Shown here: piece after piece, positions 29,171-46,320 of the stretch
How the letters are laid out: each line of letters begins with the position of its first letter
Position numbering within the stretch: position 1 is the first letter of the stretch
DNA from: Vulcanimicrobiota bacterium
GTDB taxonomy: Bacteria > Vulcanimicrobiota > Xenobia > Xenobiales > JADMJV01
Direction: 5' to 3'
NCBI GenBank assembly: GCA_050250895.1
Contig: JBFWNU010000001.1
Location: forward strand, 1,192,008-1,256,007
DNA: 64,000 nucleotides
Position numbers and translations under genes: made by a program
Notes under the pieces: generated by a model
What the model saw: only the letters and a program-made list of their open reading frames with translations
What the model was told of the DNA's origin: nothing
Database searches by the model: none

Positions 29171-29598
29171 AGAGACTGCTAACTTGCCTGTTGGTGGCCC
29201 TGGTCGCCACCGCCTGCGCCCAGAAGGACCGTCCCCTCAAGGTCGGGGTGCTCGACACCGTGCGAGCGCTCGAGAGCCAGCCCGAGGTGGCCGGTTTTCG
29301 CATGGAGTGGGCTCAGGAGGTGGGCGAGATCTATCTGCGACTTCAGAAGGTCAAGACCCCGGAGTCCTATCAGGATCTGAGCAAGAACGTCATGAAGCGC
29401 AATGAAGAGTGGCGCAAAGAGGTCGACCAGTTCCTCAACAAGTCGGTGGAAGTGGTGCGAGCGCAAGCGGTCGAGGTGGCCAAGGAGAAAGACCTCGACA
29501 TCGTGGTGCTCGACACCAGTTTCATGAACTCGGTCCAGTATTACAACGGGGAAGATATCACTCTGGACGTTATCGTCAAGATGAAGAATAAGAGCTAG
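29167..29598 (+). CDS. Skp/OmpH-like lipoprotein
   Basis: ATG 29167 overlaps upstream stop (ATGA). Lipobox-like ATAC, KVGVLDTVRAL, VAKEKDLDIVVLD...DITLDVI. Confidence 0.8.
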   Translation: MKRLLTCLLVALVATACAQKDRPLKVGVLDTVRALESQPEVAGFRMEWAQEVGEIYLRLQKVKTPESYQDLSKNVMKRNEEWRKEVDQFLNKSVEVVRAQAVEVAKEKDLDIVVLDTSFMNSVQYYNGEDITLDVIVKMKNKS

Positions 29599-30291: not shown

Positions 30292-32030
30292 AAATCCGGC
30301 TGGCTGTCACCTGTCTCTGGTTGTTGGCTCTGAGCCTGCCCGGGCTGGCCCAGGACGTGAGTGTAGGGGGTCGGGTCATCATGCGACTCGACACCAAGGA
30401 GGCGGCCGACGCCGTCACCGCTCGGATCGAGAAGTTGCTTTCCCAGGGCGCCGACCCCGAACAGATCAAAGCCCGCAAAGACGGAGAGGTCTTCTCCGTC
30501 TTCTGGGGCGAGGAACGGATCGTGACGGCCACGGCCGCCCTGGCCAGCGCCAACAAGAGTAGCAGCCAGAGCCTGGCCATTCGCTGGGCCGAGCAGCTCT
30601 ACGACACGGTTGGACCGGGGTTGCTCAGGGTGAAGCCGACCAGCGCCGTGTTGCCGGTCGGGGGCACGCTCGAGCTCGAGGTAGGAGGCTTAGCCGAGGG
30701 GCCGATCAGCGCCGAGGGGGGCAACGGGGTGGTGGCGGTCGATATCGACGACACCGGTATGGTGATCCTTCGGGGGCTGGCGGTGGGGCGTACCAAGGTG
30801 GTGCTAAAGCGCGGCCAGGGTCGAGTCGGAGTTCCGGTCCACGTCAAGGATTGGGCCGGCTACCCTCCCGATCGGGTCACCCTGAAGGTGACCGGCAACC
30901 CAGCTCCCGGACAGATGGTAGCCGAAGCGGGTCTGCAAGCCCTGTGGGCCCAGACCCGGGTCAATCCCGGTTGCCGGGTGCGCTTTGACGGTGGCCTGCC
31001 CGACATCCCCTCGGTGCCAAGCGGGCAGAACATGAAGTTCTCGCTGGCCATCAAGATTTCGGGCGGAGACGACTATTACCCGGTGGTGCGACGGGTGCCC
31101 ATCGAAGTGCAGTCCCTGCAGCTCGAGCCGGTCGAACCCAACTTGTTGTTGGTGAGCAATCGCCCCGAACGCGTCGACAAGGATGGAGTCCTGCTGGAGT
31201 ATACGTTTTCCAAGCAAGAGCCGTGTCGGCTGATGTACTCTCACCTCAACGAGACGCGTGGACGGCGTAATCTGTGGGTCAACCTGCAGAATCCGACGGC
31301 CGGCCCGGTCGAGGTGTTGATCGGTTGGACCTATGCCGGGCCCAACCGCAACGAGGTACATACCGGCCACTCGGCAGCGGTGCGCTTTCTCGACCAGCTG
31401 GGCAAGGGAGCCGGCTACGTCATCACGCTGGCCCCTCGCGAGACTTACGAGCTAGCCTATCATGATATGGGCACCCAGGACCTGGTCAGCGGTTTCGTTA
31501 ACCTTCGCATCCTCGAAGGCGAGAAACTGCGGGCCGAGGTGATCTCGGCGCTGGCTCCTTCGCGCAACGACAGTCGCAACATGGAGCGGCTGGGCGGGCC
31601 GTTTAACCCCTTCAAGATTCATCCCCACGGCGTTTTTGCCCAGCCCTGGTTCGAAGAGTGGGTCGACTTCAAGCCCGGAGACGAACCGGTGTCGGTGCCC
31701 TATGGCAAGAGCCCGTGGCTCATCGACTTCGAAACTGGCCTGCCGAACACCGGTAACTTCGGGGTGATTTATCGCTATAATTTCGTGGTTACCAACCCCA
31801 CTCGCCAGAGCCGCCAATTTCGACTGATCTTCAACCCGGTCTCGGGACCGGGCGCGGGGACCTTCCTGGTCGACGATCAGGTGGTCGAGGCCGACTTTCG
31901 CCGCAAAGGGGTTCCTGCCACCATCTATCAGTTCACCGTTGGGCCCGGCCAGGAGCGGACCGTCAAGTTGGTGACCGTGCCCGAGGCTTCGTCGAACTAT
32001 CCGGCTCAGGTGGAGATCACCGATCAATGA
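30288..32030 (+). CDS. Secreted multidomain hypothetical protein embedded in the lpx operon
   Basis: Signal peptide, overlaps both neighbours by 4 nt. Ig-like middle region, then LLVSNRPERV..GVL and GNFGVIY segments. Confidence 0.75.
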   Translation: MKIRLAVTCLWLLALSLPGLAQDVSVGGRVIMRLDTKEAADAVTARIEKLLSQGADPEQIKARKDGEVFSVFWGEERIVTATAALASANKSSSQSLAIRWAEQLYDTVGPGLLRVKPTSAVLPVGGTLELEVGGLAEGPISAEGGNGVVAVDIDDTGMVILRGLAVGRTKVVLKRGQGRVGVPVHVKDWAGYPPDRVTLKVTGNPAPGQMVAEAGLQALWAQTRVNPGCRVRFDGGLPDIPSVPSGQNMKFSLAIKISGGDDYYPVVRRVPIEVQSLQLEPVEPNLLLVSNRPERVDKDGVLLEYTFSKQEPCRLMYSHLNETRGRRNLWVNLQNPTAGPVEVLIGWTYAGPNRNEVHTGHSAAVRFLDQLGKGAGYVITLAPRETYELAYHDMGTQDLVSGFVNLRILEGEKLRAEVISALAPSRNDSRNMERLGGPFNPFKIHPHGVFAQPWFEEWVDFKPGDEPVSVPYGKSPWLIDFETGLPNTGNFGVIYRYNFVVTNPTRQSRQFRLIFNPVSGPGAGTFLVDDQVVEADFRRKGVPATIYQFTVGPGQERTVKLVTVPEASSNYPAQVEITDQ

Positions 32031-32851
32031 GTCGGCGCCAGGCCACCCTCGAGGCTCCTTTCGAGTTGACTGGAGTGGGCGTACACACGGGCGTGGATTG
32101 TCGCCTTCGCTTGCGCCCCGGTGGCGTCGACGAGGGCTTTCGCCTGATCCATCGGGGCCACACCTTTCCTGCTCACGTGCGTCTGGTCAGCGAGTGCACC
32201 CGCTCCACCAAGGTCGGGTTGGCCGAGTACGCCGTCTCGACTGTAGAACATCTGCTGGCGGCCGCCGCGGCCTCTCAACTCGACAACCTGGTGATCGAGG
32301 TCGAGGGCGGTGAGGTTCCCATCTTAGATGGCTCGGCGCTGCCTTTCTTTGAAGAATTCTCGCGGGCGGGCCGGGTCGAGCAGGGTAAGCCGGTCGAGCC
32401 GCTCGTGCTGGATCGTCCCGTCTGGGTAGGACAGGGCGATGCCATGGTGCTGGCCCGTCCACACCATCGGCTCGAACTCGAGTACCTGATCTACTATCCC
32501 CATCCTATGGTGGGTTGTCAGCAGGTGACCTTCGTCCCTGAAGAAGACAGCTTTCTAGAGCAACTGGCCCCGGCTAGAACTTTTGCGCTCTGGGAGGAGG
32601 TTCAGCCTCTGTTTGAAAGTGGGCTGGCCAAAGGTGGTGACCTGAGCAACGCTCTGGTGATCTATCAAGACCGGTATTCGAGCCCTTTGCGCCTGGACGA
32701 CGAGCCAGTCCGCCACAAGTGCCTCGATCTGTTGGGGGATCTGGCTCTGCTGGGTCGACCCCTGCAAGCCAGGGTCACGGCGGTTCGTGCCGGCCATCGT
32801 CTGCACGTCGCCCTGGCCAGAAAGATACTTCAGGAGATTGAGCATGCTTGA
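32027..32851 (+). CDS. lpxC: UDP-3-O-acyl-N-acetylglucosamine deacetylase LpxC
   Basis: GVGVHTG, TVEHLLAA, EVPILDGSA, ARTF, HKCLDLLGDL, AGH. Confidence 0.95.
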   Translation: MSRRQATLEAPFELTGVGVHTGVDCRLRLRPGGVDEGFRLIHRGHTFPAHVRLVSECTRSTKVGLAEYAVSTVEHLLAAAAASQLDNLVIEVEGGEVPILDGSALPFFEEFSRAGRVEQGKPVEPLVLDRPVWVGQGDAMVLARPHHRLELEYLIYYPHPMVGCQQVTFVPEEDSFLEQLAPARTFALWEEVQPLFESGLAKGGDLSNALVIYQDRYSSPLRLDDEPVRHKCLDLLGDLALLGRPLQARVTAVRAGHRLHVALARKILQEIEHA

Positions 32852-33266
32852 CGGAATCGCCATCCAGGAGAAGATCCCCCACCGCTATCCTTTCTTTCTG
32901 CTCGATGGCGTCGTTGAGCAGAGCCCCGAGCGGATCGTGGGTTTCAAGAACGTCACCGTCAACGAGCCCCACTTTCAGGGGCATTTTCCCAACGCTCCCG
33001 TCATGCCCGGTGTGTTGGTGCTCGAGGCTTTGCTGCAATTGGCCTGGGTGAAGTTCGCGGCCGAGGGCGGCATTCGACTGGCCAGGATACGTAAGCTGCG
33101 ATTCCGTCGTCCCACCGTGCCGGGTGATCGGCTCGAGCTCGAGGTGGATATCGTCTCTCGTGACGGCGATTCGGCGGAACTAAAGGTGTTGGCGCGGGTT
33201 GAAGATCAAGTCTCGGCCACCGGCTCGGTCTGGGTAAAGGTGGGTCGAGAAGTCGTTGGAGCCTAG
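32844..33266 (+). CDS. fabZ: 3-hydroxyacyl-ACP dehydratase FabZ
   Basis: IPHRYPFFLLD, KNVTVNE, GHFP..PVMPGVL. Start moved to ATG 32844. Confidence 0.92.
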   Translation: MLDGIAIQEKIPHRYPFFLLDGVVEQSPERIVGFKNVTVNEPHFQGHFPNAPVMPGVLVLEALLQLAWVKFAAEGGIRLARIRKLRFRRPTVPGDRLELEVDIVSRDGDSAELKVLARVEDQVSATGSVWVKVGREVVGA

Positions 33267-33566: not shown

Positions 33567-34541
33567 TTGGAACCAGTTAGAGTGGGGGTTGTAGGAATTG
33601 GGAACATGGGCGTCCATCACGCTCGCGTTTACTCAGAGCTTCCTCAGACTGAGCTGGTAGGGGTAATCGATATTAACGAAGCCCGTGGTAAGCTCTGCTC
33701 CGAGCAGTACAGCACCAACTTCTCCAGCGATTACAGAAGTCTCTTTGAGCGAGAAGTTCAGGCTGTTAATATCGTCGTTCCCACCAGTTTGCATTTTCCG
33801 CTAGCGGTGGACTTTTTGCAGCATCACGTCCACGTTCTCGTCGAAAAGCCGATTACGGTGGATCTGATTCAGGCCAAGCGTCTGGTCGATCTCTCGAAGA
33901 AAAAACATTGTATCCTCCAGGTGGGTCACCTGGAGCGCTTCAATCCGGCCGTCCGTAAGCTACGCGAAGTGCTCGGGCGGCCGGTTTATCTAGAGTCAAG
34001 ACGGATCTCGTACCCGACCAACCGCAACCTGGATGTTGGGGTAGTGTGGGACCTGATGATTCACGACCTGGACATCCTCATCAACTTGGTAAAGTCGCCG
34101 GTGGTGGAGATTCACGCCATGGGCGTCTCGGTCTATTCCGACTTCGAAGATGTGGCCCAGGTTCACCTACTGTTCAAGAACGGAGTGGCGGCCAGTTTGC
34201 TGGCCTCGCGTATCAGTGGCGAAAAGCAGCGCAGTCTGAAGGTCACCGAAGACACCGGCCGCACTCTGAATCTCGACTTCATCAACCAGACGCTGCAAGC
34301 CATGCGGCCGCCCCGCAACGGACGGCCGATTCCGCCCGAGTTCTTGCCGGTGGAAAAAGATGAGCCTTTGCGCCTGGAACTATCGCACTTTGCCGATTGC
34401 GTGGCCAATCACAAGACTCCCCTGGTGACGGGTGATGACGGTAAGCGGGCCCTGGAGTTGGCGATGCAGGTCCTGGCCCGGATGAAAATGGTTAAGTCCA
34501 AGGCTCCGCTGGGTAAAGAACTGATAGCTTTGGCGGGGTAA
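33567..34541 (+). CDS. Gfo/Idh/MocA oxidoreductase, GnnA-like UDP-GlcNAc 3-dehydrogenase
   Basis: GVVGIGNMG, VEKPI, VGHLERFNPA, DLMIHDLDI. Lies immediately upstream of lpxA-lpxB. Confidence 0.8.
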   Translation: MEPVRVGVVGIGNMGVHHARVYSELPQTELVGVIDINEARGKLCSEQYSTNFSSDYRSLFEREVQAVNIVVPTSLHFPLAVDFLQHHVHVLVEKPITVDLIQAKRLVDLSKKKHCILQVGHLERFNPAVRKLREVLGRPVYLESRRISYPTNRNLDVGVVWDLMIHDLDILINLVKSPVVEIHAMGVSVYSDFEDVAQVHLLFKNGVAASLLASRISGEKQRSLKVTEDTGRTLNLDFINQTLQAMRPPRNGRPIPPEFLPVEKDEPLRLELSHFADCVANHKTPLVTGDDGKRALELAMQVLARMKMVKSKAPLGKELIALAG

Positions 34542-34557: not shown

Positions 34558-35409
34558 ATGGCCACAATCCATCCTTCTGCACTGGTGAATCCGAAGGCGG
34601 AGATCGCTGACGATGTCGAGATCGGACCGTTCACCATCGTTGGTGAAAACGTCAAGATCGGCCGCGGCACGAAGATCCACTCTTCGGTGGTTCTCGATGG
34701 CTGGACCGAGATCGGTGAAGACAACGAGATCTATCCTGGTGCCGTTATCGGTGTCGCTCCTCAGGACCTGCGCTACAGTGGCGAGCGCGCCTACACCCGC
34801 ATCGGTCACCGCAACGTCATTCGCGAGTATGTCACCGTTCATCGCGCCTCGGACGAAGAGGGTCTGACCGCCATCGGCGATGACAACCTGATCATGGCCT
34901 ACACCCACGTGGCTCACAACTGCCTGCTGGGGAATCAGATCATCGTGGCCAATTCGGTCGGACTGGCTGGCCATGTCGAGATCGAAGATCAGGCCGTGCT
35001 GGGAGGCATGTGCGGCGTTCATCAGTTCGTGCGCGTGGGCCGGCTGGCGATGCTCGGCGGGATGGCCAAGGTCAGCCAGGATGTGCCTCCTTTTGCGATG
35101 GTCGACGGGCAACCGGCTCGCATTTTCGGCATGAACATCCGCGGCATGCAGCGGCGGGGCGTGACCAAAGAAGCCCGACTCGGTTTGAAGAATTGCTACC
35201 GGCTGATCTTGCGTTCGGGTCTGAACCTCAGCCAGGCTTTGAGCGCCGTTCGCGCCACCGTCGACAGCACGGACGAGGTGCGTCACTTGTTGAGATTTCT
35301 AGAGAGTCCCTCGCGGATGGGCGTGTGCATTCGCCAGCCCGACCACAAACGCGACAAGCAGGCCAACGGTCGGCCCCTGAAGGTCAAAGTCGAAGCCGCC
35401 GGAGGATAG
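34558..35409 (+). CDS. lpxA: Acyl-ACP--UDP-N-acetylglucosamine O-acyltransferase LpxA
   Basis: IHPSALV, PQDLRY, IREYVTVHR, HVAHNC, LAGHV, VHQFVRVG, QDVPPF. Confidence 0.95.
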   Translation: MATIHPSALVNPKAEIADDVEIGPFTIVGENVKIGRGTKIHSSVVLDGWTEIGEDNEIYPGAVIGVAPQDLRYSGERAYTRIGHRNVIREYVTVHRASDEEGLTAIGDDNLIMAYTHVAHNCLLGNQIIVANSVGLAGHVEIEDQAVLGGMCGVHQFVRVGRLAMLGGMAKVSQDVPPFAMVDGQPARIFGMNIRGMQRRGVTKEARLGLKNCYRLILRSGLNLSQALSAVRATVDSTDEVRHLLRFLESPSRMGVCIRQPDHKRDKQANGRPLKVKVEAAGG

Positions 35410-35428: not shown

Positions 35429-36622
35429 ATGGCGCGAAAAATAGCGATCATGGCCGCCGAGCCTTCGGGGGATTTGCAGGGTGCGGCGCTGGCTCGCGAA
35501 CTTCGCCGACGAATCCCCTCGGTCGAACTCTTAGGAGTTGGCTGTGCCCGGTTGCGGGAGGCCGGGGTCCAGTTGATGTGTGATTCTTCCACCTGGGGGA
35601 CCATCGGTCCGAGCGAGGCGATCGCCCGCCTTCCCGCGCTTTACATGGCTTATCGCAAGATGCGCCACGTTTTGGTTCGCGAGCAGCCCGACTTGACGGT
35701 GGTCATCGATTCGCCGGCCATCCACATGCGTTTGACCGGTTATCTGCAAAGACAATCCATGCGCACTCTGTATTACTTTCCCCCCTCGGCCTGGACGCGC
35801 AACCCCAAGCGAATGCACGAGATCCACTGCCGGGTCTGCGGCGTGGTGGCCACCTTCGCCTATAACTATCAGACCTACTGTGATAACGGACTGCCAGTAG
35901 CCTACTATGGCCACCCCATGGTCGACCTGCTGGACCGGGCCCCTTCGGCGGCCGAATCGCGTCGTGCCCTGGGCCTTCCCGAAGCCCGGTATGTGGCCCT
36001 GATGCCGGGTAGCCGAACTCAGGAGGTCCGTCTATTGACGCCGATTCTGCTCGAGACGGCCCGGCGACTGAGGCGCCATCGACCGGACTTGAGGTTTCTG
36101 CTGCCGGCCGCCAGCGCCAAGATCGAGAAGCGTCTGCGCGATCTGATCGGACCCATTCCCGACTGGCTCACCCTGCTGTCGGGATCATCCCGCGAAGCTC
36201 TGCGCTGCTCTGAACTGGTGTTGATGTGCTCGGGCTCGGCCTCGCTCGAGGCGGCCGTGCTGGGGATTCCCCTGGCCATTTTTTACAAGTTCAATCAGGC
36301 CGACTATGCCCTGGCCCGCCTGCTACGCTGGCTGAATATTCTGAGGATCCAGCGCTTTGGACTGCCCAATCTGGTGCTCGACGAGGATGTCCTGCCCGAA
36401 CTGTTCCAGGATCAGGTCACTCCCGAGCGCCTCGAGCAAGAGGCCCTGCGGCTGCTCGAGCCGGGACCCTATCGTGACCACCACCTGCAACAACTGGCCC
36501 GGGTCCGTGAGGCCCTGGCTGGAGAAGGGTCCATTCCCAGGATTGCGGCCTTTGTCGACTATATCGCCCAGGGTTACGAGAGTCTGGAGGCCCTCGAGAA
36601 GGTCGATCGGGAGTTCGCCTGA
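35429..36622 (+). CDS. lpxB: Lipid-A-disaccharide synthase LpxB
   Basis: AAEPSGDLQGA, IDSP, PPSAW, GHPMVD, MPGSRTQEV, SGSASLE, GLPNLV, PELFQD. Confidence 0.9.
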   Translation: MARKIAIMAAEPSGDLQGAALARELRRRIPSVELLGVGCARLREAGVQLMCDSSTWGTIGPSEAIARLPALYMAYRKMRHVLVREQPDLTVVIDSPAIHMRLTGYLQRQSMRTLYYFPPSAWTRNPKRMHEIHCRVCGVVATFAYNYQTYCDNGLPVAYYGHPMVDLLDRAPSAAESRRALGLPEARYVALMPGSRTQEVRLLTPILLETARRLRRHRPDLRFLLPAASAKIEKRLRDLIGPIPDWLTLLSGSSREALRCSELVLMCSGSASLEAAVLGIPLAIFYKFNQADYALARLLRWLNILRIQRFGLPNLVLDEDVLPELFQDQVTPERLEQEALRLLEPGPYRDHHLQQLARVREALAGEGSIPRIAAFVDYIAQGYESLEALEKVDREFA

Positions 36623-37785
36623 TGGAGATCATCCTGACCGCTAACTCGCCGGGCGAGGTAGGTGCCTGGGTGCGGGCTACCGTAGCCGAGCTCAAAGCCA
36701 GCCATCCCGAGGTTCGTATCACCGTGGCCCTCGTGCCCTGCCCGTTTGCCACGGGGGCCGAAGCTCGTGTGGCCGAGTCTTTGCCCGGCGTCGACCGGGT
36801 GCTGCCCCCCTGGCACACCATGCTGGGCATTCTCGGGCTGCGCCGTTTACCAGCCTTTGAACGCCCGGCGGTGGTGGGATATCTGGGCGGAGAGTTGCTC
36901 CACGCCCTGGGTCTGGGTTGGCGGCTTGGATTGCCGACGGTGGGCTATCTGGTCAAACCGTCGTTTTGGGGCCGCTATTTCACCCGGATAGGCCTGGCCC
37001 GCGCCCAGGATCAGCCAGAGATGGGTGAGCTGGCACGTTTTTGCGGCGACTTGCGGGTCGACGGGGTGCAGCGCAACCTGCCCGGGTCGCCTCGCCACCA
37101 GGGTGGACCGGTTTTGGGCCTTTTTCCGGGATCGCGGGCTATCCACATGCGGGCCACCCTGGGGGTCTATCTGCGGGCGGCCGAGCTGATCGCGCAGCGG
37201 GTGCCCGACCTGAGGGTGATATTGGCACTGTCGCCATTTGTCGACCGCGCCAGCGTGGAGGCGGCCATGGTGCGGCCGCTCCTGCCTCTGCCGGTCAGTC
37301 GCGGCGAGTTTGTCGAGGACATGCTGATGACCCAGGGGGGGTTGTCGGTTGAAGTGCTCTGGGGCAAGCCCTACGAGGCGATCGAACGCCTGGACCTGGC
37401 CCTGTGCATTCCCGGCACCAACACGGCCGAGCTGGCCTGTGCCGGTAAGCCCTTCCTGGTCACCTTGCACCCTTTGGCCCAGGTTGGGGGCGGCGGGCTG
37501 TTTGGCTTGCTGGATCGCTTGCCTCTGGGTCCGCTCAAGCCCTATCTGCGGCTGCGCAAGCAGCGACGCCTGAGATTCACCGCTTATCCCAACTATCTGG
37601 CCAACGAGATGATCGCTCCCGAGGTCCTGGTGGCAGACGATCTCTCCAATCTTTGCGACCAATCCGTGGAGTTGCTTGAGAATCAAGAACACAGGAAGAG
37701 GATTGGGACACGGCTTCAGGAAGCTATGGGCCCTCCCGGGGCCGCACGCGCCCTGGCTGAGTTGATGGTGGAGACGGTTGCATAG
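36622..37785 (+). CDS. LpxB-like GT-B glycosyltransferase (second paralogue)
   Basis: TANSPGEVGAW, FPGSR, PGTNTAELA, AYPN. LpxB-type C-terminal half with a divergent N-terminus. Confidence 0.75.
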   Translation: MEIILTANSPGEVGAWVRATVAELKASHPEVRITVALVPCPFATGAEARVAESLPGVDRVLPPWHTMLGILGLRRLPAFERPAVVGYLGGELLHALGLGWRLGLPTVGYLVKPSFWGRYFTRIGLARAQDQPEMGELARFCGDLRVDGVQRNLPGSPRHQGGPVLGLFPGSRAIHMRATLGVYLRAAELIAQRVPDLRVILALSPFVDRASVEAAMVRPLLPLPVSRGEFVEDMLMTQGGLSVEVLWGKPYEAIERLDLALCIPGTNTAELACAGKPFLVTLHPLAQVGGGGLFGLLDRLPLGPLKPYLRLRKQRRLRFTAYPNYLANEMIAPEVLVADDLSNLCDQSVELLENQEHRKRIGTRLQEAMGPPGAARALAELMVETVA

Positions 37786-38359
37786 CTTTCGGGAATTTGT
37801 CTTTCGTTGGCGGGGGGGCCTGCTAGCTCCTCTGGCTCTCATTCTGTTGGTGGGGGGGCAGCCCACGCCCTCCTCGTTTGGCCTGGGGCTGTGGCTGGCC
37901 CTGATGGGCGAGAGCCTCCGTCTGTGGGCTATCGGCTACACCGGCGAGCCGACCCGTGGACAAGAACTGGAGGCCCCCGCTCTGGTCACGGCCGGGCCGT
38001 ATTCCTTGACTCGCAATCCACTTTATCTAGGGAATCTGTGCAACGGACTGGCGCTGGCTATGGCGGCTGCCGGGGGGCATACGGCTGGCGGTGCGGCTCT
38101 GCTCATCGCGATGGCCGCTTGCGGGTTGGCGTTTGTTTATGGTAGCATCATCCCGCTGGAAGAACAGTTCCTCGAGGAAAAATTTGGCCAGGTCTACCGG
38201 GAGTATAAGCAATCGGTGGCGGCCCTGATCCCCTGGAGCTTACGTTTGAAGCCTGGCTACGGCTCCTTTTCGTTGCGTCAAGCCTTGCTCTTCGAGCGAT
38301 CTTCGTTGCTATGGTGGGCCTCGATTTGGGGCATACTGTGGTTGAGGGTGGGACCGTAA
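37778..38359 (+). CDS. Isoprenylcysteine carboxyl methyltransferase (ICMT/PEMT) family membrane protein
   Basis: LRLWAIGY, LVTAGPYSLTRNPLYLGN, EEQFLEEKFGQVYREYKQSV. Confidence 0.88.
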   Translation: MHSFREFVFRWRGGLLAPLALILLVGGQPTPSSFGLGLWLALMGESLRLWAIGYTGEPTRGQELEAPALVTAGPYSLTRNPLYLGNLCNGLALAMAAAGGHTAGGAALLIAMAACGLAFVYGSIIPLEEQFLEEKFGQVYREYKQSVAALIPWSLRLKPGYGSFSLRQALLFERSSLLWWASIWGILWLRVGP

Positions 38360-38372
38360 GGAGTCGGAGTAG

Positions 38373-38873
38373 TTGAGTCGTAAGCGTCCGAAAATGGCCG
38401 GTGGGAAACGCCTACCCGGTGTCACTGCCGCCAAGAAGCCCCCTTCCAGGCGCCCCGCCAAGAAGGACACCCCTGAGGACAAGCTTCGTTTTCAGCGAAT
38501 CCTGGCCACCATCGGCTTCGGTTTCTGCGGCGCTCTAGCCGGCTTTCTTACCGGCGCCAACAAGTTGGCCACGCCTCCCCCCGAGGTGGCCGCCAACCCG
38601 TTGCTCAACCTCACCTGGATGGGGTTGACCGTGGGCTTCGAGAAGTTCCACCTGGCCCAGGGCATCGAAGGGCTGGTGCTGGGGGCGGTGATCGGCGCGA
38701 CCATGGGCTTTTCGGTTTTGATGCATCCCGGAGTCATGCTGGGATCATGGCTTGCTTCGGGCCTGCTGTTGGGCCTGGCCTGGAAATTCACCGGCAGTCT
38801 GGTAGTGGCGGCCGTGGCCTGGATGGCCGGCTTTTTGCCGTTCTTGCTGAGAGAGTTTTCTAAAGAGGAATAG
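38373..38873 (+). CDS. Hypothetical membrane protein
   Basis: Basic N-terminus followed by about 4 hydrophobic segments. GGAG RBS, in operon. Confidence 0.7.
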   Translation: MSRKRPKMAGGKRLPGVTAAKKPPSRRPAKKDTPEDKLRFQRILATIGFGFCGALAGFLTGANKLATPPPEVAANPLLNLTWMGLTVGFEKFHLAQGIEGLVLGAVIGATMGFSVLMHPGVMLGSWLASGLLLGLAWKFTGSLVVAAVAWMAGFLPFLLREFSKEE

Positions 38874-39586
38874 TGAGTTCGCTCACCATCGTTCACACCA
38901 ACGATCTCCACGGTTGCAGCCAACCCCTTGAGCGCCTGGCTGGCGAGGCCCGAAGTCAAGCGGTCTTGCTCGACTCGGGGGACGCGATCGCCGGTTCCAA
39001 CACGGCCTTCTATCTTCACGAACCCAACCTGGCCAGAATGTCGCAACTGGGCTACCGCGCCATGGCCATGGGAAACCGCGAGTTTCACTACTTGCGCCGG
39101 GTTCTGGCCATGCGCCGCAGGGAGCGAAACTTTCCTCTCTTGGCGGCCAACCTGGTGGACTTGCGCGGCCAGTCCCAAGGACTTTTCGAATCTCACCTAA
39201 GCCTCGAACTGGCGGGCCTGAAGCTGGCGATCTTCGGGGCTACCGTCGTTCAGTACCCGGTTGGCTCCGGCTGGGAGCGACTGACCGGCTTTCGCTTTCT
39301 CGACCCCGAGCTCTGTCTACCCCCCCTGGTCAGACGGCTGCGGGGCGACCATGACCTGGTGATCTTCTTATCCCATCTGGGTCTGGATGTCGATCGCCGG
39401 CTGGCACCACGGCTCGAGGTCGATCTGGTGCTGGGGGGCCATACCCACGATCTGCTGGAGCAGCCAGAGAAGGTCGGTCGCAGTTGGATCTTCCAGGGCG
39501 GAAGCCACGGTCGCTATTTTGGCCGGATTCACCTGGATATCGAGGACGACCTGAAGGTGGCCTACGAGCTGGTGGCCTGTTCGTGA
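38873..39586 (+). CDS. Calcineurin-like metallophosphoesterase (5'-nucleotidase N-domain only)
   Basis: HTNDLHG, DSGDA, GNREF, LSHLG, GGHTH. No signal peptide and no C-terminal nucleotidase domain. Confidence 0.85.
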   Translation: MSSLTIVHTNDLHGCSQPLERLAGEARSQAVLLDSGDAIAGSNTAFYLHEPNLARMSQLGYRAMAMGNREFHYLRRVLAMRRRERNFPLLAANLVDLRGQSQGLFESHLSLELAGLKLAIFGATVVQYPVGSGWERLTGFRFLDPELCLPPLVRRLRGDHDLVIFLSHLGLDVDRRLAPRLEVDLVLGGHTHDLLEQPEKVGRSWIFQGGSHGRYFGRIHLDIEDDLKVAYELVACS

Positions 39587-40710
39587 AGAGAGTGCTGCTG
39601 GTGTCCAACGGGGCGGGCGAGGATGCCATCGCAACCCGGGTGGCAACTCACTTCGAGGGGCTGCAGGCTGAGGCTTTGCCGCTGGTGGGGCTGGGTCAAG
39701 CCTATCAGGGCGGCTGTTCCGTAGTCGGCCCCCTGCGCCGGTTTGCCAGCGAGGGTCTGGTGCGAGAGTCGGCCGGCAACTTCCTGGCCGATCTCCGGCA
39801 GGGCCTGCTGGCCCACCACTTGCGCCAGTGGCGATTCCTTCGCTCCTGCCGCGGTCGGTATTCGGCCGTGATCGCGGTGGGCGACCTCTTTCCGGTGGTC
39901 ATGGCCGCGCTGGCCGGGCTTCGGCCACTGATTTTCGTGGGCACGGCCAAGTCGGTCTGGCATCATGCCTATTCTCGGCCCGAGCTATGGTTGCTGCGCT
40001 GGTTCACGAGCGCGAGCCTGACCCGCGACGAGCCCACCGCCGAGCAGTTGCGGGCAGCCGGGCTGAGGGCCGCCTGGGTGGGCAACGCCATGATGGACGA
40101 GTTGGCCACTACCGACCTGGAGTTGCCGCTGGCCGGGTTGCCGGGGTTGGCCATTTTTCCGGGCAGCCGTGAGGCGACCTATACCGACTTTCCCCGCCTG
40201 CTGGCGAGCTATCAGGCCCTGGTCGAGTCGGGTTGCCAGGTGCAAGCGCTGGTGGCTCTGGCCAGTTCGATCGATGCCGAGCGACTGGCGGCCACCTGCC
40301 CGGCCTGGAGCTATCGACCTGAGGGCGAGCGACTGGTGGGTCGGCTCGAGCGCTCGGGCTTTCCGCCTGTGTTGTTTTGCCGCGGGGCGCTGGGAGACAT
40401 GCTGGCCCACTGCCAGGTGGCCCTGGGTCAGGCCGGCACGGCCAACGAGCAGGCGGCCGGGGCCGGGCTGCCGGTGGTGGCCGCGGCCGAGGGCGGCGAG
40501 GCCAATCTGGGTTGGTATCGAGGGCGGCAGAAGGGTTTGCTGGGCGAGGCCCTCAAGGTGGTCGAGCCCGAGGGGGTGGTCAGCGAGTTGAGGACGCTCT
40601 TTCAGGAGCCGGACGAGCGCCAGCGCCGGGGCGAGATCGGGCGCCAGCGGATGGGCCCGCCGGGCGGTGCTCTGCGCATGGCCCGGGCCATCGAGCGGCT
40701 GGTCGAGTGA
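39583..40710 (+). CDS. Lipid-A-disaccharide synthase-related glycosyltransferase (third LpxB-fold protein)
   Basis: GTG 39583 overlaps upstream stop. VSNGAGED.IA, LPLVG.G..Y, AVGD, GTAKS, GNAMMD, FPGSR and AGTANEQ match the cyanobacterial-type LpxB-related family. Confidence 0.82.
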   Translation: MKRVLLVSNGAGEDAIATRVATHFEGLQAEALPLVGLGQAYQGGCSVVGPLRRFASEGLVRESAGNFLADLRQGLLAHHLRQWRFLRSCRGRYSAVIAVGDLFPVVMAALAGLRPLIFVGTAKSVWHHAYSRPELWLLRWFTSASLTRDEPTAEQLRAAGLRAAWVGNAMMDELATTDLELPLAGLPGLAIFPGSREATYTDFPRLLASYQALVESGCQVQALVALASSIDAERLAATCPAWSYRPEGERLVGRLERSGFPPVLFCRGALGDMLAHCQVALGQAGTANEQAAGAGLPVVAAAEGGEANLGWYRGRQKGLLGEALKVVEPEGVVSELRTLFQEPDERQRRGEIGRQRMGPPGGALRMARAIERLVE

Positions 40711-41510
40711 GAATCGCCAGCTTTCTGGGCTGCTTGCTAGGCGCCTGGGTGGTCACCTGGTTGGGGCTGGGCACGGTCTGGGGAGACCCCCTTTTGCTGC
40801 TGACCCCGTCACGGGCCAGCGAGCCCCAGCGCATCACCTATCTTCTGGTCCTGTTCGCGCTGGTCAGCACCGCCACGGCCTGGCGGTGGCGTTGCAGTGG
40901 CCCTGTCTGGCCGGGGTTCGGGCGGCCTGCTCTGTTCGGGCTGGGATTGCTGGTAGGGGTGGTCAGCTCGCTGGTTCACCGAGGCTTGTTGTTCGCGGCC
41001 GGAGCCTATCACCCGCCGGCCCTCACGCTCTGGTTTGCCTGGATCCTCGTGAGCGTCAGTGTGCTGGCGGTGCTGGAAGAATCGGTTTTTCGGGGCTACC
41101 TTTTTGGGGTGGTCTATCAGGATCACGGCCGAATGGCGGCCTATGTAGGGGTGGGGCTGTTCTTTGCGCTGGTTCACCTCTTTCGGCCCGGCGGTCTGGT
41201 TTTCAAGCTCTGTTATGCGGTGGGACTCTTGCTGACGGCCTGGGTGCTCAGCCGGGTAGTCGAGCACACTCGCTCGCTCTGGGCCGCGGCCGGACTGCAT
41301 GCGGGCTGGATCACCTTTAACGTCTTGGATGCGGGCAAAGCCGCCGTGGCCAGCCCCATGGCGGGCTATCAGGGTGAAGTGGTGTCGGGCTGGTTGGGCT
41401 GGTTGCTGCTGCTGGGCTTGCTCACTCTGGTGGAGCGGGTTTTTCCCGCCGGGCCAGCAGATTGCGCTCTTGACGAGCCTCCAGAGCCCGTCGGCGCATC
41501 TCTTGCTTGA
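40707..41510 (+). CDS. CPBP (CAAX/Abi) family intramembrane metalloprotease
   Basis: EESVFRGY, FFALVH, SLWAAAGLHAGW, multiple TM segments. GTG 40707. Confidence 0.85.
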   Translation: MRIASFLGCLLGAWVVTWLGLGTVWGDPLLLLTPSRASEPQRITYLLVLFALVSTATAWRWRCSGPVWPGFGRPALFGLGLLVGVVSSLVHRGLLFAAGAYHPPALTLWFAWILVSVSVLAVLEESVFRGYLFGVVYQDHGRMAAYVGVGLFFALVHLFRPGGLVFKLCYAVGLLLTAWVLSRVVEHTRSLWAAAGLHAGWITFNVLDAGKAAVASPMAGYQGEVVSGWLGWLLLLGLLTLVERVFPAGPADCALDEPPEPVGASLA

Positions 41511-42354
41511 GCGGAATGGCCGGCTGACCCAGATAAGGCCCGGCCGCCTCGAGGCGTCCACTGGCGATGGCCCGTCCGCCTACCTGGATCATCGAGCCCA
41601 GTTCGGCCCGGGCCGCCACCATCGACTGGCCGGCGGTAATCACGTAGTCACCCAGCCTGGCGCCCGGCCCCACCAGCGACTTGGACACGAAGATGCAGTG
41701 CTTGCCGGTCTTCACGCCGGCCTCGACGGTGACCAGGTTGTCGATCTTGGTGCCTTCCCCCACCTGGGCCCCGGCCATTACCCGCGAACGTCCACCCACA
41801 TCCACCCGCGCTCCGAGACTGGCTCCTTCGCCGACATGGCTGCCGGCTTCGAGCAGGCATTCGGGCCCAAGCTGGGCGCCGGCTCCCAGGCTCACCCCGG
41901 GATTCAAGCGGCAACCCGGGCCAAGCCGGGCTCCGGCCCCCACCGCCACGCGCGCCACCAGTTCGACTCTCGCTTCGAGCACGGCCCCGGCCTCGACCAC
42001 GCACCAGGGGCCGATCCAGCAACTGTCGTCGACCTGGGCCTCGGCGTGGACAAAGCTGGTGGGATGGCGACCGGGGGGGTGAGGTCGGTGAGGATGGAAG
42101 AAGGCCAGGGCTTTGGCGAAGGCCACGCGCGGTTTGGCCACCACGATGGCCGGCTTGTCGGCCGGGGCGCTTTGACAGAGAACCGCTGCGGCCGGGCTCT
42201 GGCAAGCCCGCTCGAGGCTCTGGGCATCTTCGGCGAAGGTCAGGGTGGAGGCGTCGGCCTGCTCGACCCCGGCGACTCGCTCGATGGCCAGATGCTCGGG
42301 ACCGGACACGGTTCCGCCCACCAGGGCGGCAAGTTCAGCCAGCGTTGCGGACAT
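41422..42354 (-). CDS. LpxD-like protein with N-terminal uridine-binding domain but lacking the catalytic His
   Basis: MSATLAELAALVGG...IERVAGVEQA...LTF and VAKPRVAFAKAL (LpxD N-domain), hexapeptide repeats, KIDNLVTVEAGV in place of KIDNLVQIAHNV. Start moved to ATG 42354. Confidence 0.72.
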   Translation of the reverse strand: MSATLAELAALVGGTVSGPEHLAIERVAGVEQADASTLTFAEDAQSLERACQSPAAAVLCQSAPADKPAIVVAKPRVAFAKALAFFHPHRPHPPGRHPTSFVHAEAQVDDSCWIGPWCVVEAGAVLEARVELVARVAVGAGARLGPGCRLNPGVSLGAGAQLGPECLLEAGSHVGEGASLGARVDVGGRSRVMAGAQVGEGTKIDNLVTVEAGVKTGKHCIFVSKSLVGPGARLGDYVITAGQSMVAARAELGSMIQVGGRAIASGRLEAAGPYLGQPAIPLKQEMRRRALEARQERNLLARREKPAPPE

Positions 42355-42409
42355 CGGGGCCGGTTCGGGCTGGCAGGTCCGGGCCCTGCCTGGATTGAAA
42401 AACTTTAGT

Positions 42410-43399
42410 GTGGACGCGGTTTTGTCGGTGCAAGACCTGGTGGTGCAGTTTGCCACTCGCGAGGCCACCGTGACGGCTGTCCGGGGGGTCAGCTTTTCCA
42501 TCGGCCGGGGCGAGACGCTGGCCCTGGTGGGCGAGTCCGGTTCGGGAAAGACGGTCACTTCGCTGGCCGTGATGGGTCTGCTCGAACCGCCGGGGCGGGT
42601 CGCCTCGGGCAATCTGGTTTTCGAAGGACGCTCGCTGCTGGGTCTTAGCGAGCGAGAGTATCGCGGCTTGCGCGGGTCGCGCCTGGCCATGATTTTTCAG
42701 GATCCGATGACCTCGCTCAATCCGGTCATGAAGGTGGGTAAGCAAGTGGGCGAGGTGCTGCGCCTTCATCGTGGGCTTGCTCAGCCGCGTCAGCGGGTGG
42801 TCGAACTGTTCGCCGAGGTCTCGCTACCCGACCCCGATCAGCTTTTTGACGCCTATCCCCACCAGCTTTCCGGAGGCATGCGCCAGCGCGTCATGATCGC
42901 CATGGCCCTGGCCTGCGACCCGGCTCTGCTGGTGGCCGACGAGCCCACTACGGCCCTTGACGTGACGGTGCAGGCTCAGATCCTCGAGTTAGTCAGGGCC
43001 CTGCAGGCCAAACACCAGATGGCCGTGCTGCTGGTGACCCACGACATGGGAGTGGTAGCCAGCGTGGCCGACCGGACCGCCGTCATGTATGGTGGCTGCC
43101 TGGTCGAAGACGGCCCCACCAACCAGCTTTTTGAACAGCCGCGCCACCCCTACACCCGAGGGCTACTGGCTTCGGTGCCCCGGCTCGACCGCGAGCCCGA
43201 GCGCCTGGATCCCATCCCTGGACAGCCCCCCAGCTTGCTGTCCCCCCCTCCCGGCTGCCCCTTTGAACCCCGTTGTGCCCTGGCTCGTAGCGACTGCAAG
43301 GCACGGTTGCCGGAGCTGGCGGAGGTGGCCGAAGGGCGTTGGAGTCGCTGTTTGTTCTGGGAGGAGGTCGAGACGCTTGTCCCCGCTGCTCGAGGTTGA
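42410..43399 (+). CDS. Peptide ABC transporter ATP-binding protein (OppD/DppD type)
   Basis: [43 protein letters not shown]-terminal Cys cluster. Confidence 0.92.
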
Positions 43400-44330
43400 G
43401 GGTCTTTCGGTAACCTTTCGTTCCGGCGGTCTGCTGCGCCCTACCCGCGAGCTGCGCGCGGTCGACGATGTCTCATTGTGGCTCGAGCCGGGCGAGACGC
43501 TGGGTCTGGTGGGCGAATCCGGCAGCGGAAAGTCGACCACCGCCAGGGCTATCCTGCGATTGGTGCCGGCCAGCGGCGGAACGGTGCATTTTGCCGGCCA
43601 ACCTGTCTTCGCCCTCAGGGGTCAGGACCTGCGAGCTTTTCGCCGCCGGGCCCAGTTTGTTTTCCAGGACCCCTATTCCAGTCTCAACCCGCGCCAGACC
43701 ATCGGTTCGATTCTGGCCGAGCCGTTGGTGATTCACGGGTTGGCGCGCGGCCCGGAACTCAGCGCCAGAGTGGATGAGCTGATGGCCAAAGTCGGCCTCT
43801 CGCCCGACATGAAAAGTCGCTATCCTCACCAGTTCTCGGGGGGCCAGCGCCAACGGATCGGCATCGCTCGCGCCCTGGCCAGCGGCCCCGAACTGGTGGT
43901 GGCAGACGAGCCAGTCTCGGCCCTCGATGTCTCGATCCAGGCCCAGGTGCTCAATCTCCTCAGCCAACTACAGCAGGAGTACGGTCTTGCCGTTTTGATG
44001 ATCTCTCACGATCTGGCCGTCATCCGCCAGATCTGCCACCGGGTGGCCGTGATGTTCCTCGGCCGCATCGTCGAGATGGGACCCGTCGAGCAGGTCTGCC
44101 GCTCTCCCCGCCATCCTTACACCCGCGCTCTGCTCGACGCGGTGCCCTCGTTTTCCGGCTTTCAGGTCAACGCCCAGGCCAGTGCCCCGGTCGATCGTCG
44201 CCAACCCGGTTGCCGCTACGCTCCCCGGTGTCCCCTGGCAACCGAGGTTTGTAGGCAAGAGATTCCACCCCTGGCGGAGAAATTGCCTGGTAGAGTGGTG
44301 GCTTGTCACCACCTTCCTGAGGAAAGTTGA
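43377..44330 (+). CDS. Peptide ABC transporter ATP-binding protein (OppF/DppF type)
   Basis: [43 protein letters not shown]. Confidence 0.92.
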
Positions 44331-44334
44331 GTAT

Positions 44335-46320
44335 ATGATGCAACCATTCTTGCGCTGGGGGACGATTGCCCTACTCACGGTGATGATGGCGGCCGGAGCA
44401 GGTGCCCAGCCCGGTAAGTCGCTGTTGCGGGTCGACAACCGCTTCCTGGACTCTCCCGGGAGTGAACGCTATCCTCAGGCCCGGGCCCTGATTTTGCTCG
44501 ATGACATCGAGTTCAATCTCTCCCCGGATGGCTCGGTGGACTTTAGCGAGCACGACGCTATCAAAGTTCTCACGGAAGACGGTGTGAAAGAACAGAGCGA
44601 ACTGGTTCGCATCTATGATTCGCGACTCGAGGGCTACGAATTGCGCGCCGCCCGCGTCATTAGCGCCGACGGGGCCGTCAGCGAGGTTCCCAAGAGCGAA
44701 GTGAGCGACGAGGCCCTGTTCAAGAGTTCCCAAGCCTACAGCGCCTATCGCAAATTCAAAGTGAACTTTCCCGGGGTCAAGCCGGGCATGGTAGTCGAGT
44801 TCGACATCGTCACCCACCGCAAGCCCCGCCGCGACAAAGCCTGGTGGGCCACCAGTTACGTCCAGAATCCGAGCCCGATTCTCTCTTCTACTTTCACGGC
44901 CCGGCTACCGGCTGGCACACCCCTGAACTGGTCTACGCCGGGGCTGGGCAGGCTCGAGCCCGAGAAGGCGACGGCCGACGGCACGGATATCTATCGGTGG
45001 GCGGTCAAGGACCAGCTCGCTCTCGAGCCCGAGCCCTCCATGCCTACCGTTTTGCAGGCCCTCAATCGCATCGAGATCTCTTCCTTTCAAGACTGGAAGA
45101 GTGTCGGTCAGTGGATCGACCAGGGTTGGCATCTTCAGGTCTCTCCTACCTCCAAAGTGGCTCTGAAAGCGGCCGGCTTGTTGCCGGTCGGCGGCACCGC
45201 TCACGACCGCGTCCAGTCGATTCTCGGCTGGGTCGAAAAAGAAAAAGAAGTGGTCGACTTTCTCAACGACGACTTCTTCCCTCGGGACCCTTCGCTGGTG
45301 GTCGACGAGCCGGTGCTGGCCAATCTCGACGTGGCTTCGTTGCTGGGTGCGATGTTGACCTTTGCCGGCTATCAGGTCGAGCCGGTGGTGACCTTCCCCG
45401 AACCGACCAATCGGCAGGGCGACGAGTTGCCCATGCCGTCGAAGATGGACGAGGTGGTGCTGCGCGTCACCGATGTAGCCGCCCATAAGACCTGGTGGAT
45501 CTCGCCGGAGCATCCCGGCGAAGTCTCCCTGTCCCCCCCCAGCGGGTTTCAGGGCGCCAGCGCCCTGGTGCTCGGCCGGGCTGAAGGTCTGGTCGATCTC
45601 GAGCGGGGCGAGGCCGACGAGAATCGTCAGGAGGTTCGGGTCGAAGCTCGGGTCGACCTCAACGGTCGCACCGAGATCGGTCTGTGGATCGGTCAGTACG
45701 GCGACTCGGGAACGCTCTGGCGCGAGGCCGCGCGCTCTTTGTCCGAGGCCAATCGGCGGGTGCGCGAACGCAATCTAGACAATCTTTTTGCTCGCCTGGC
45801 TCGCAGTATCTCGCCGCGGGCCCAGGTCCACGACCGCTATTTCGACCTGGCTCCCGACCCGGGGGCCGGCTTCGACATGTCGGCCACGCTGATCATCCCG
45901 GGTTATGTGGTCAAGGAGGGCAACGAGTTTGCCCTGCCACTGCCGGTGCAGTCCAACGAGCGACTTCGCGAACTGCTGGGCCAGGGTCTCAACCGGCGCT
46001 ATCCCATCCGCTTTGATCACCCGTTCCGCGACGAGACGCGGGTCCACGTGTTGCTGCCCGAAGGGTCGACCATCACGGCTCTGCCGCCGACTGTCTCCAT
46101 CGACACCCCGGCCGCCTCCTTCATCTCGCATACTCGAACCGCCAACGGCGAGGCGTGGTATTATAGCCGTTTGACCGTCAAGAAGCCATGGGTGTCCATC
46201 GACGAGCTGGAACCTCTGCTCGAGGTGGCCAAAAACATGGCCGAGTCCCAACAGTCGATGTTGAAGTTCACCCCGCCCGCCGGGGCCACCACCGAGATCG
46301 AGAGCGAGGAAGACCTCTGA
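44335..46320 (+). CDS. DUF3857/transglutaminase-like domain secreted protein, catalytic residues apparently lost
   Basis: Signal peptide, DUF3857-like N-domain (IKVLTEDG, FPGVKPGMVVEF), DUF3858-like C-terminus (RRYPI..., LPEG...LPP). Confidence 0.7.
   Translation: MMQPFLRWGTIALLTVMMAAGAGAQPGKSLLRVDNRFLDSPGSERYPQARALILLDDIEFNLSPDGSVDFSEHDAIKVLTEDGVKEQSELVRIYDSRLEGYELRAARVISADGAVSEVPKSEVSDEALFKSSQAYSAYRKFKVNFPGVKPGMVVEFDIVTHRKPRRDKAWWATSYVQNPSPILSSTFTARLPAGTPLNWSTPGLGRLEPEKATADGTDIYRWAVKDQLALEPEPSMPTVLQALNRIEISSFQDWKSVGQWIDQGWHLQVSPTSKVALKAAGLLPVGGTAHDRVQSILGWVEKEKEVVDFLNDDFFPRDPSLVVDEPVLANLDVASLLGAMLTFAGYQVEPVVTFPEPTNRQGDELPMPSKMDEVVLRVTDVAAHKTWWISPEHPGEVSLSPPSGFQGASALVLGRAEGLVDLERGEADENRQEVRVEARVDLNGRTEIGLWIGQYGDSGTLWREAARSLSEANRRVRERNLDNLFARLARSISPRAQVHDRYFDLAPDPGAGFDMSATLIIPGYVVKEGNEFALPLPVQSNERLRELLGQGLNRRYPIRFDHPFRDETRVHVLLPEGSTITALPPTVSIDTPAASFISHTRTANGEAWYYSRLTVKKPWVSIDELEPLLEVAKNMAESQQSMLKFTPPAGATTEIESEEDL

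Follow-up and report, generated by a model that had tools for sequence, protein, structure and literature searches.

The stretch of DNA analyzed here (the window) comprises 64,000 nucleotides from a Vulcanimicrobiota bacterium (assembly GCA_050250895.1, contig JBFWNU010000001.1, positions 1,192,008 to 1,256,007). It carries, within a lipid A gene cluster, a gene (38873..39586, plus strand) for a 237-residue stand-alone metallophosphoesterase of the 5'-nucleotidase type, the GNRE phosphoesterase, in which an arginine stands at the position of the catalytic histidine. We propose, with a probability of roughly one half and on the basis of sequence comparison, that this protein is a fourth, independently evolved UDP-2,3-diacylglucosamine pyrophosphatase, working together with the protein of family TIGR03492 encoded next to it. 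LpxB needs lipid X, and organisms with LpxA, LpxC, LpxD and LpxB therefore need an enzyme of this kind; neither LpxH nor LpxI was found in the window genome or in 201 genomes of the phylum, as the first-pass annotation had supposed in calling this step missing. Gene context, co-occurrence, ancestry and the LpxH-like arginine appear to point the same way, toward a lipid X-forming role.

Protein family and active-site motif

The phosphoesterase gene overlaps at both ends: its GTG start has one base in common with the stop codon TAG (38871-38873) of the gene before it, and its TGA (39584-39586) overlaps a GTG at 39583 (GTGA), which is likely the start of the TIGR03492 gene. The first-pass annotation had described a single-domain phosphoesterase without a signal peptide, overlapping both neighbors within the lpxB block; the open reading frame (ORF), the Pfam scan and the overlaps all bear this description out. 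In the Pfam scan of the 237-residue protein the sole domain was PF00149 (Metallophos), with 46.5 bits against a cut-off of 21.5 (E 7.5e-12), covering protein residues 5-193 and profile positions 2-190 of 191; the C-terminal substrate-binding domain PF02872 (5_nucleotid_C) was absent. The protein is thus a member of the PF00149 superfamily both by its score over the gathering cut-off and by its five metal-binding blocks, which read HTNDLHG, SGDAIAGSNT, MGNREFHY, LSHLG and GGHTHD in the translation. Neither a signal peptide nor a membrane segment was found in the protein (the maximum 19-residue Kyte-Doolittle mean is 1.43), and we predict it to be soluble and cytoplasmic.

Block III contains the motif G67-N68-R69-E70-F71 (39071..39085, plus strand), where the GNREF named in the first-pass annotation can be read directly. 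Arg69, encoded by cgc (39077-39079), occupies the position of the catalytic His in GNH(D/E). Alignments of homologues (29 close rows and 27 divergent ones) leave D11, H13, D37, N68, H168, H190 and H192 invariant, and Arg69 is kept in 29 of 29 aligned homologues and in all 27 divergent members (31-39% identity). Two Armatimonadota-type sequences (P0317 and P0316) have GNRD instead of GNRE. The exchange of His for Arg is the sole change at the catalytic center relative to the 5'-nucleotidase ancestor family. A reading of the protein as a pseudoenzyme was set aside, since every metal ligand is invariant. A search for sequencing runs with this sequence returned four DNA runs, with small shares and from one study, and no RNA run was listed.

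Relation to the 5'-nucleotidase family

The nearest solved relative by sequence is Escherichia coli UshA (E 3e-26), in which IGNHEF aligns with MGNRE. Its structures are deposited as 'Protein UshA' and '5'-nucleotidase', and the NCBIfam family is named 'bifunctional UDP-sugar hydrolase/5'-nucleotidase UshA'; going by that name, UshA would cleave the same kind of UDP-sugar bond as the one in question here. Partial matches to NCBIfam models were all far under the cut-off (SoxB, 103.3 bits against 550; UshA-like, 81 against 275; UshA, 74.6 against 600), and the protein belongs to none of these three equivalogs.

An AlphaFold2 model built from the 29-row alignment has a mean predicted local distance difference test score (pLDDT) of 95.1. 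Its partners in Foldseek and VIA-align searches are the N-terminal domains of CD73, Thermus 5'-nucleotidase, E. coli UshA, NadN and SoxB, with TMq of about 0.83, Z of 24-28 and a root mean square deviation of 2.1-3.2 Å over 225-233 residues; for the N-domains of the UshA/5'-nucleotidase family the values are Z 26-28 and 2.1-2.9 Å. LpxH was not among the 50 VIA rows or the Foldseek rows listed, which still leaves room for a shared core fold. Judged by sequence and by the predicted structure, the GNRE protein is a stand-alone catalytic N-domain of a 5'-nucleotidase, which would be kin to LpxH at the superfamily level only.

The family is large. We found 801 homologues at E <= 1e-3 in a 90%-clustered collection, the few named ones coming from metagenome-assembled genomes (MAGs) of Eremiobacterota; searching 1.84 billion representatives with a profile yielded 1065 matches at E <= 1e-30. 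Among the best 150 of these 1065, all 70 proteins of at most 300 residues carry GNRE and none carries GNH(D/E); 78 of the 80 longer proteins carry GNH(D/E), as had been stated beforehand for 5'-nucleotidases and UshA, the exceptions being one fusion protein and one GNQE protein. We built a quick maximum-likelihood tree from 150 N-domain rows (the best 150 representatives plus six added proteins, minus six that lacked a domain match spanning 170 or more profile positions) over 265 columns, unrooted and with the motif column retained. In this unrooted tree the 72 GNR rows (70 short proteins and two fusions) lie on one side of a branch with a Shimodaira-Hasegawa-like approximate likelihood ratio test (SH-aLRT) value of 100, and a single origin is compatible with both the missing C-domain and the exchange of His for Arg.

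The names attached to divergent members are five from Armatimonadota and one from candidate division WS1, and the nearest clusters in the ESM Atlas are those of Vulcanimicrobiota and Armatimonadota. Orthologues common in monoderms would have spoken against the first-pass proposal; no monoderm lineage appears among the few names that the homologues carry (Eremiobacterota, Armatimonadota and WS1).

Survey of lipid X enzymes in the genome and the phylum

The window genome (9.5 Mb in 17 contigs, 99.64% complete) has LpxA, LpxC, LpxD and LpxB. LpxH has no match anywhere in it, LpxI_C nothing beyond a 13-bit chance match, and LpxK and WaaA likewise have no match. There are 19 Metallophos matches in this genome, and the 18 other than the GNRE protein all lack Arg in block III; by NCBIfam these comprise Pnkp-like, YfcE-type and unassigned proteins, three SbcD, two full-length UshA-like proteins and two that are YaeI-like.

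We extended the survey to an evenly drawn sample of 201 genomes of the phylum, 171 of which are at least 90% complete. The GNRE family is present in 199 of the 201 (in 80 of 80 genera and in 21 families), as is LpxB; LpxH and LpxI_C are each found in 0 of the 201. Omitting two unpublished genomes (G177 and G227) gives 197/199 for the family, 197/199 for LpxB, and 0/199 for both LpxH and LpxI_C. TIGR03492 is missing as well from the two genomes in which the family is absent, and their LpxB matches are weak only; both genomes are fragmented MAGs, and the gap looks like one of assembly.

A second set consisted of the 50 genomes behind the related loci described below, picked because they carry the GNRE gene. 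LpxH and LpxI_C were each found in none of the 50, LpxG over the cut-off likewise in none (with a weak YaeI-like match in 27 and none at E <= 1e-5 in 23), and LpxK in one, marginally over the cut-off. The profile against absence of lpxH, lpxI and lpxG, which the first-pass annotation had proposed as a check, thus comes out in its favor within this phylum.

Gene neighborhood and association with TIGR03492

Related loci were collected by scanning one genome of each species with a pattern (377 relatives), and the best 80 were kept; most of these come from records titled Eremiobacterota, Vulcanimicrobiota, Xenobia or UBP9. Neighbors were identified by BLAST of all ORFs against the window proteins, and some loci end at contig ends. 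A TIGR03492-like ORF adjoins the phosphoesterase in 79 of the 80 loci and is found in the remaining one (L070) too; in 73 a near-full-length TIGR03492 ORF starts within about 100 bases of the phosphoesterase end. Within 8 kb of the phosphoesterase we found lpxA in 63, lpxB in 61, fabZ in 59 and lpxD in 52 of the 80 loci, and the usual order, which is also that of the class with small genomes, is lpxD-fabZ-lpxA-lpxB-phosphoesterase-TIGR03492.

Ten of the loci (L020, L023, L025, L027, L038, L042, L048, L067, L070 and L087) have titles of Burkholderiales, Rhodospirillales or Janthinobacterium together with the Eremiobacterota arrangement. The genome behind one Burkholderiales-labelled locus was placed near the genus of the window, and all ten look like mislabelled MAGs.

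The two genes also occur as natural fusions. P0136 (650 residues) has the phosphoesterase at 3-227 and TIGR03492 at 262-646, and P0402 (640 residues) has them at 3-236 and 245-617; each fusion rests on a single contig. Among the 120 longer relatives listed, only these two have PF00149 as the sole precomputed Pfam domain, without PF02872. Twelve further long open frames were considered as fusions and rejected, each being two genes in different frames.

The TIGR03492 gene of the window (39583..40710, plus strand) encodes a GT19-like 'lipid-A-disaccharide synthase-related protein' with 241.6-243.3 bits against a cut-off of 219.2. Its invariant PGSR aligns with P198-G199-S200-R201 of E. coli LpxB; the N-terminal catalytic base is not alignable. 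In LpxB, P198-R201 is the pyrophosphate-binding motif (PMC5785501; this and the other papers cited by PMC number, except PMC9758169, are cited from excerpts). A complex prediction for the TIGR03492 protein with the phosphoesterase gave a score of 0.00, which we read as evidence neither way. A structural neighbor of TIGR03492 is a 752-residue LpxK fusion labelled Synergistota.

More distant members were sought by a metagenome scan with the Armatimonadota-type alignment, which returned 80 loci; 13 of these have the Eremiobacterota arrangement. In a divergent subfamily, which is probably Armatimonadota-type, the order is KdsD (TIGR00393, 313 bits), KdsC (TIGR01670, 158 bits), phosphoesterase and a PMT_2/LIC_10190-like membrane protein of about 630 residues, the KdsD and KdsC matches both being over the cut-off. 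This arrangement is conserved on six metagenome contigs (L107, L105, L111, L112, L114 and L118). Of the 80 metagenome loci, 11 have a KdsC-like gene within 3 kb, 9 a KdsD-like gene, 18 the PMT_2 protein and 13 an M28 peptidase; among the 37 loci where both flanks reach 1.5 kb or more, a neighbor linked to lipopolysaccharide (LPS) is present in 16. Association with LPS genes is seen again in this second arrangement, yet it is not universal.

A further subgroup (L133, L134, L138, L139, L142, L146, L149 and L167) has the motif GNRESH and follows a gene for a protein of about 650-730 residues with an M28 peptidase domain. A GFO/IDH/MocA oxidoreductase lies nearby on the opposite strand in five of these eight loci, with no LPS genes within 3 kb.

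Proposed mechanism and alternative explanations

According to our proposal, the GNRE protein would be a cytoplasmic dinuclear-metal pyrophosphatase that converts UDP-2,3-diacylglucosamine (or its GlcN3N analogue) to UMP and lipid X. Its ancestor would be a UshA-type UDP-sugar hydrolase/5'-nucleotidase, of which the catalytic N-domain was kept, the C-terminal nucleotide-binding domain was lost and the His of GNHE gave way to Arg. A metal-bound hydroxide (activated water) would attack the alpha-phosphate, and Arg69 would clamp the beta-phosphate (the sugar 1-phosphate) in the way that Arg80 does in LpxH. Loss of the C-domain would have removed the usual nucleotide clamp, with no lipid-binding insertion in exchange; the adjacent or fused TIGR03492 protein, a paralogue of LpxB, probably supplies the binding site for the UDP-diacyl-sugar or receives the product. 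We infer the substrate, the products, the role of Arg69 and the TIGR03492 partnership; what we observe are the fold, the motifs, the gene context, the co-occurrence, the fusions and the missing enzymes. A more specific version, in which phosphoesterase and TIGR03492 form a two-part enzyme where a former disaccharide synthase binds UDP-2,3-diacylglucosamine and the nucleotidase-derived domain cuts the pyrophosphate, is tentative, and we regard it as rather doubtful in that precise form.

Several observations weigh against a lipid X-forming role. The closest linkage of the phosphoesterase is to TIGR03492 and not to LpxB, and TIGR03492 scores over its cut-off in the control genomes of Synechococcus elongatus and Deinococcus radiodurans, the latter of which is not known to make lipid A. 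ESM Atlas clusters of TIGR03492 are found most often in Cyanobacteriota, Bacillota and Margulisiibacteriota, and LpxI is reported from two groups of diderm Firmicutes, the Negativicutes and the Halanaerobiales (PMC5007114); because TIGR03492 thus also occurs outside the LpxH-less setting, its role is not tied to the missing lipid X step. The GNRE protein lacks the helical lipid-binding insertion of LpxH, and its model aligns 225-231 residues to the plain N-domain of 5'-nucleotidases. Of the 37 well-flanked divergent loci, 21 have no LPS neighbor; several of these 21 lie beside an M28 peptidase, and one holds a GNHE protein that falls outside the family. The window genome has two YaeI/LpxG-like proteins, with 100.8 and 41.9 bits against the LpxG cut-off of 350. 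The pattern across the phylum, finally, may represent one evolutionary event, the 201 genomes being kin and not independent samples. The first-pass suggestion of a UDP-2,3-diacylglucosamine hydrolase on a nucleotidase scaffold therefore stands in part: context, co-occurrence, ancestry and the arginine favor it, and the main partner TIGR03492, which that annotation had not named, the missing insertion and the LPS-less loci count against it.

Alternatively, the phosphoesterase might serve TIGR03492 in a later or other glycolipid step (trimming a diphosphate-linked head group, for example, or hydrolyzing a UDP-sugar or UDP), with UDP-2,3-diacylglucosamine cleaved by another, unrecognized enzyme. 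The tightest coupling, in the 79 loci and the two fusions, would be explained directly; the pair occurs without lpxA or lpxB within 8 kb in three loci (L040, L045 and L047), the distribution of TIGR03492 beyond genomes with a missing LpxH fits as well, the Synergistota-labelled LpxK fusion points to steps after LpxB, and TIGR03492 retains the UDP-pyrophosphate motif of an active GT19 enzyme. The price of this explanation is a lipid X step without a candidate in the 201 genomes, since the sole alternatives are YaeI-like proteins, which are absent (E <= 1e-5) in 23 of the 50 GNRE-carrying genomes and the better of which stands in an unrelated context in the window genome. Moreover, the divergent subfamily has its LPS context without TIGR03492 beside it, and an Arg at the position of the His suits a diphosphate substrate. 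We consider service to TIGR03492 in another step somewhat unlikely.

We give little credence to the idea that the lipid X step is carried out by the membrane-anchored YaeI/LpxG-like phosphoesterase itself (G000 contig C4, L193:5418-6563), with the GNRE protein as an accessory. LpxG is proven for this step (PMC4807358), and the protein in question matches the LpxG model with the 100.8 bits given above and the YaeI model with 129.6, its Metallophos match beginning at residue 146 after a long N-terminal extension. Both scores are far under the cut-offs (350 for LpxG and 188 for YaeI), however; the same model matches weakly in the Bacillus subtilis and Lactococcus lactis controls, 23 of the 50 GNRE-carrying genomes have no such match, and the neighboring genes (ABC-2 transporter, MOSC and methyltransferase genes) are unrelated to LPS. 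A housekeeping function, as a cytoplasmic nucleotide or UDP-sugar pyrophosphatase or as a 5'-nucleotidase whose position in the cluster is incidental, would agree with the ancestry in the 5'-nucleotidase family, with the database names of relatives (5'-nucleotidase or cyclic-nucleotide phosphodiesterase) and with the divergent loci that lack LPS neighbors. It accounts poorly for the missing substrate-binding PF02872, for the replaced catalytic His and for a gene kept beside TIGR03492 across the 21 families of the phylum and twice fused to it, and it strikes us as improbable.

Other genes of the lipid A cluster

The block that contains the phosphoesterase begins with a BamB-like gene (minus strand), followed by genes for BamA, Skp/OmpH, a 463-residue ORF, a 204-residue ORF, a short LpxD-like protein, a 580-residue ORF and LpxC. 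It continues with FabZ, a UDP-GlcNAc 3-dehydrogenase-like protein, LpxA, LpxB, a weak GT19-like paralogue and a PEMT/ICMT methyltransferase, and ends with a small membrane protein, the phosphoesterase, TIGR03492, a CPBP protease and, on the other strand, LpxD.

The core enzymes of the pathway lie on the plus strand, apart from LpxD. LpxC (32027..32851) matches PF03331 with 283 bits, LpxA (34558..35409) matches NF003657 with 360.6 bits against a cut-off of 226, and LpxB, the lipid A disaccharide synthase (35429..36622), matches PF02684 with 231.2 bits and TIGR00215 with 224.4 bits against 190.25. The FabZ-like dehydratase ORF (32787..33266) was named from its translation and its conserved position (59 of the 80 loci). 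LpxD (41422..42690, minus strand) is a 422-residue ORF that matches NF002060 with 174.8 bits and TIGR01853 with 152.8 bits, both under the cut-off; the match runs from residue 113, and the true start probably lies downstream of the called ORF start. A second LpxD-like gene (29602-30291, plus strand; 229 residues) covers model positions 105-321 of 345 with 205.6 bits against a cut-off of 207.

Between fabZ and lpxA lies a GFO/IDH/MocA oxidoreductase gene (33567..34541, plus strand) that resembles UDP-GlcNAc 3-dehydrogenase (GnnA-like; NF040723, 268.3 bits against a cut-off of 450) and is conserved in 29 of the 80 related loci. Its presence gives a hint that the lipid A backbone may be built on 2,3-diamino-glucose. 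Directly after lpxB, with a one-base overlap, comes a third GT19-like paralogue of 387 residues (36622..37785, plus strand; LpxB, 23.3 bits; TIGR03492, 40.5 bits), present in 34 of the 80 loci; in this genome without WaaA it might be a core glycosyltransferase. The PEMT/ICMT-family membrane methyltransferase (37778..38359, plus strand; PEMT, 32.3 bits), present in 41 of the 80 loci, is weakly like Leptospira LmtA, the lipid A 1-phosphate methyltransferase (TIGR04571, 49 bits against a cut-off of 325). As a lead only, it would fit a retained lipid A 1-phosphate, which it perhaps methylates. Directly upstream of the phosphoesterase, a 166-residue membrane protein (38373..38873, plus strand) with three to four hydrophobic segments has no family match in Pfam or NCBIfam; a similar ORF occurs in 27 of the 80 loci.

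The three ORFs in the bamA-skp-lpxD-lpxC block (27321-28712, 28984-29598 and 30288-32030, plus strand; 463, 204 and 580 residues) have no NCBIfam match. Pfam gave no match for the 204- and 580-residue ORFs and a sub-threshold Apolipoprotein match for the 463-residue one. Downstream of the lipid A cluster, 44182-46320 (plus strand) encodes a 712-residue protein with DUF3857 (94.4 bits).

Significance

Lipid X formation is essential in lipid A synthesis and is a current antibiotic target. In the excerpts available, papers up to 2026 name three classes of enzyme for this step, LpxH, LpxI and LpxG (PMC13018214, on diderm Firmicutes), and our search of the literature on TIGR03492, or on the lpxH/lpxI step in Armatimonadetes and Terrabacteria, found no GNRE family and no fourth class in texts other than supplementary tables, which it did not cover. 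If the proposed function is correct, it would close the lipid X gap for at least the Vulcanimicrobiota/Eremiobacterota phylum, of which Vulcanimicrobium alpinus is a cultured member (PMC9758169), add to LpxH a second, independently acquired exchange of His for Arg by which the role of that residue can be tested, and point to a function for the uncharacterized TIGR03492 family. Should the two-part enzyme be real, it would be a fourth lipid X synthase class, native in Eremiobacterota to a short pathway of LpxA, LpxC, LpxD and LpxB without LpxK and WaaA. It may also bear on Armatimonadota and on the unexplained four-enzyme pathway of cyanobacteria, which, like Dictyoglomi, were described in 2010 as having LpxA, LpxC, LpxD and LpxB and no known enzyme for the lipid X step (PMC3087551).

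Comparison with UshA and with known enzymes of the lipid X step

UshA and the 5'-nucleotidases are nearest to the GNRE protein both by sequence and by fold, and their N-terminal metallophosphatase domain is the part that it shares. It differs from them in having neither the C-terminal 5_nucleotid_C domain nor a signal peptide, in forming a separate clade, and in the active site, where Arg69 aligns with the catalytic His of IGNHEF and the Asp of GNHEFD aligns with His or Asn.

LpxI carries out the same step as an alternative enzyme and occupies a comparable gene position (in Caulobacter the lpxI gene lies between lpxA and lpxB; PMC3087551). It belongs to an unrelated family with a different catalytic mechanism (PMC4807358), and the GNRE protein, in which only PF00149 was found, is not a member of LpxI_C (PF06230). 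LpxG is closer in kind: a calcineurin-like enzyme with GNHD, in a lineage without LpxH and LpxI (PMC4807358), it is a metallophosphoesterase that fills the same gap for which the GNRE protein is here a candidate. LpxG is YaeI-like and has an N-terminal membrane helix, whereas the GNRE protein has GNRE and no membrane helix and gave no match at E <= 0.01 to the LpxG model NF033458 (cut-off 350 bits).

For LpxH, the exchange of the block III His for Arg is reported as unique to that enzyme (PMC3087551, PMC5016852); the arginine, Arg80, engages the lipid X phosphate in a bidentate salt bridge, and a helical insertion domain buries the acyl chains (PMC5016852). The first-pass annotation had stated correctly, as far as these excerpts go, that LpxH has Arg in GNRD and that LpxG is calcineurin-like. 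The GNRE protein is not an orthologue of LpxH: it gave no match at E <= 0.01 to TIGR01854 (cut-off 190.35 bits), and an hhalign comparison with E. coli LpxH was not significant (probability 0.88%, E 0.063), with GNREF in register with GNRDF. It belongs to the 5'-nucleotidase branch and is paired with a GT19 paralogue, and it shares with LpxH the block III Arg and not the helical insertion domain. Both are nevertheless cytoplasmic members of the metallophosphoesterase superfamily with Arg for the block III His (GNRE or GNRD here, GNRD in LpxH), and both occur in organisms whose LpxB depends on lipid X; we propose for the GNRE protein the same reaction and the same role of the Arg. On this reading, it would be the third independent metallophosphoesterase lineage recruited to the lipid X step, with an arginine acquired by convergence.

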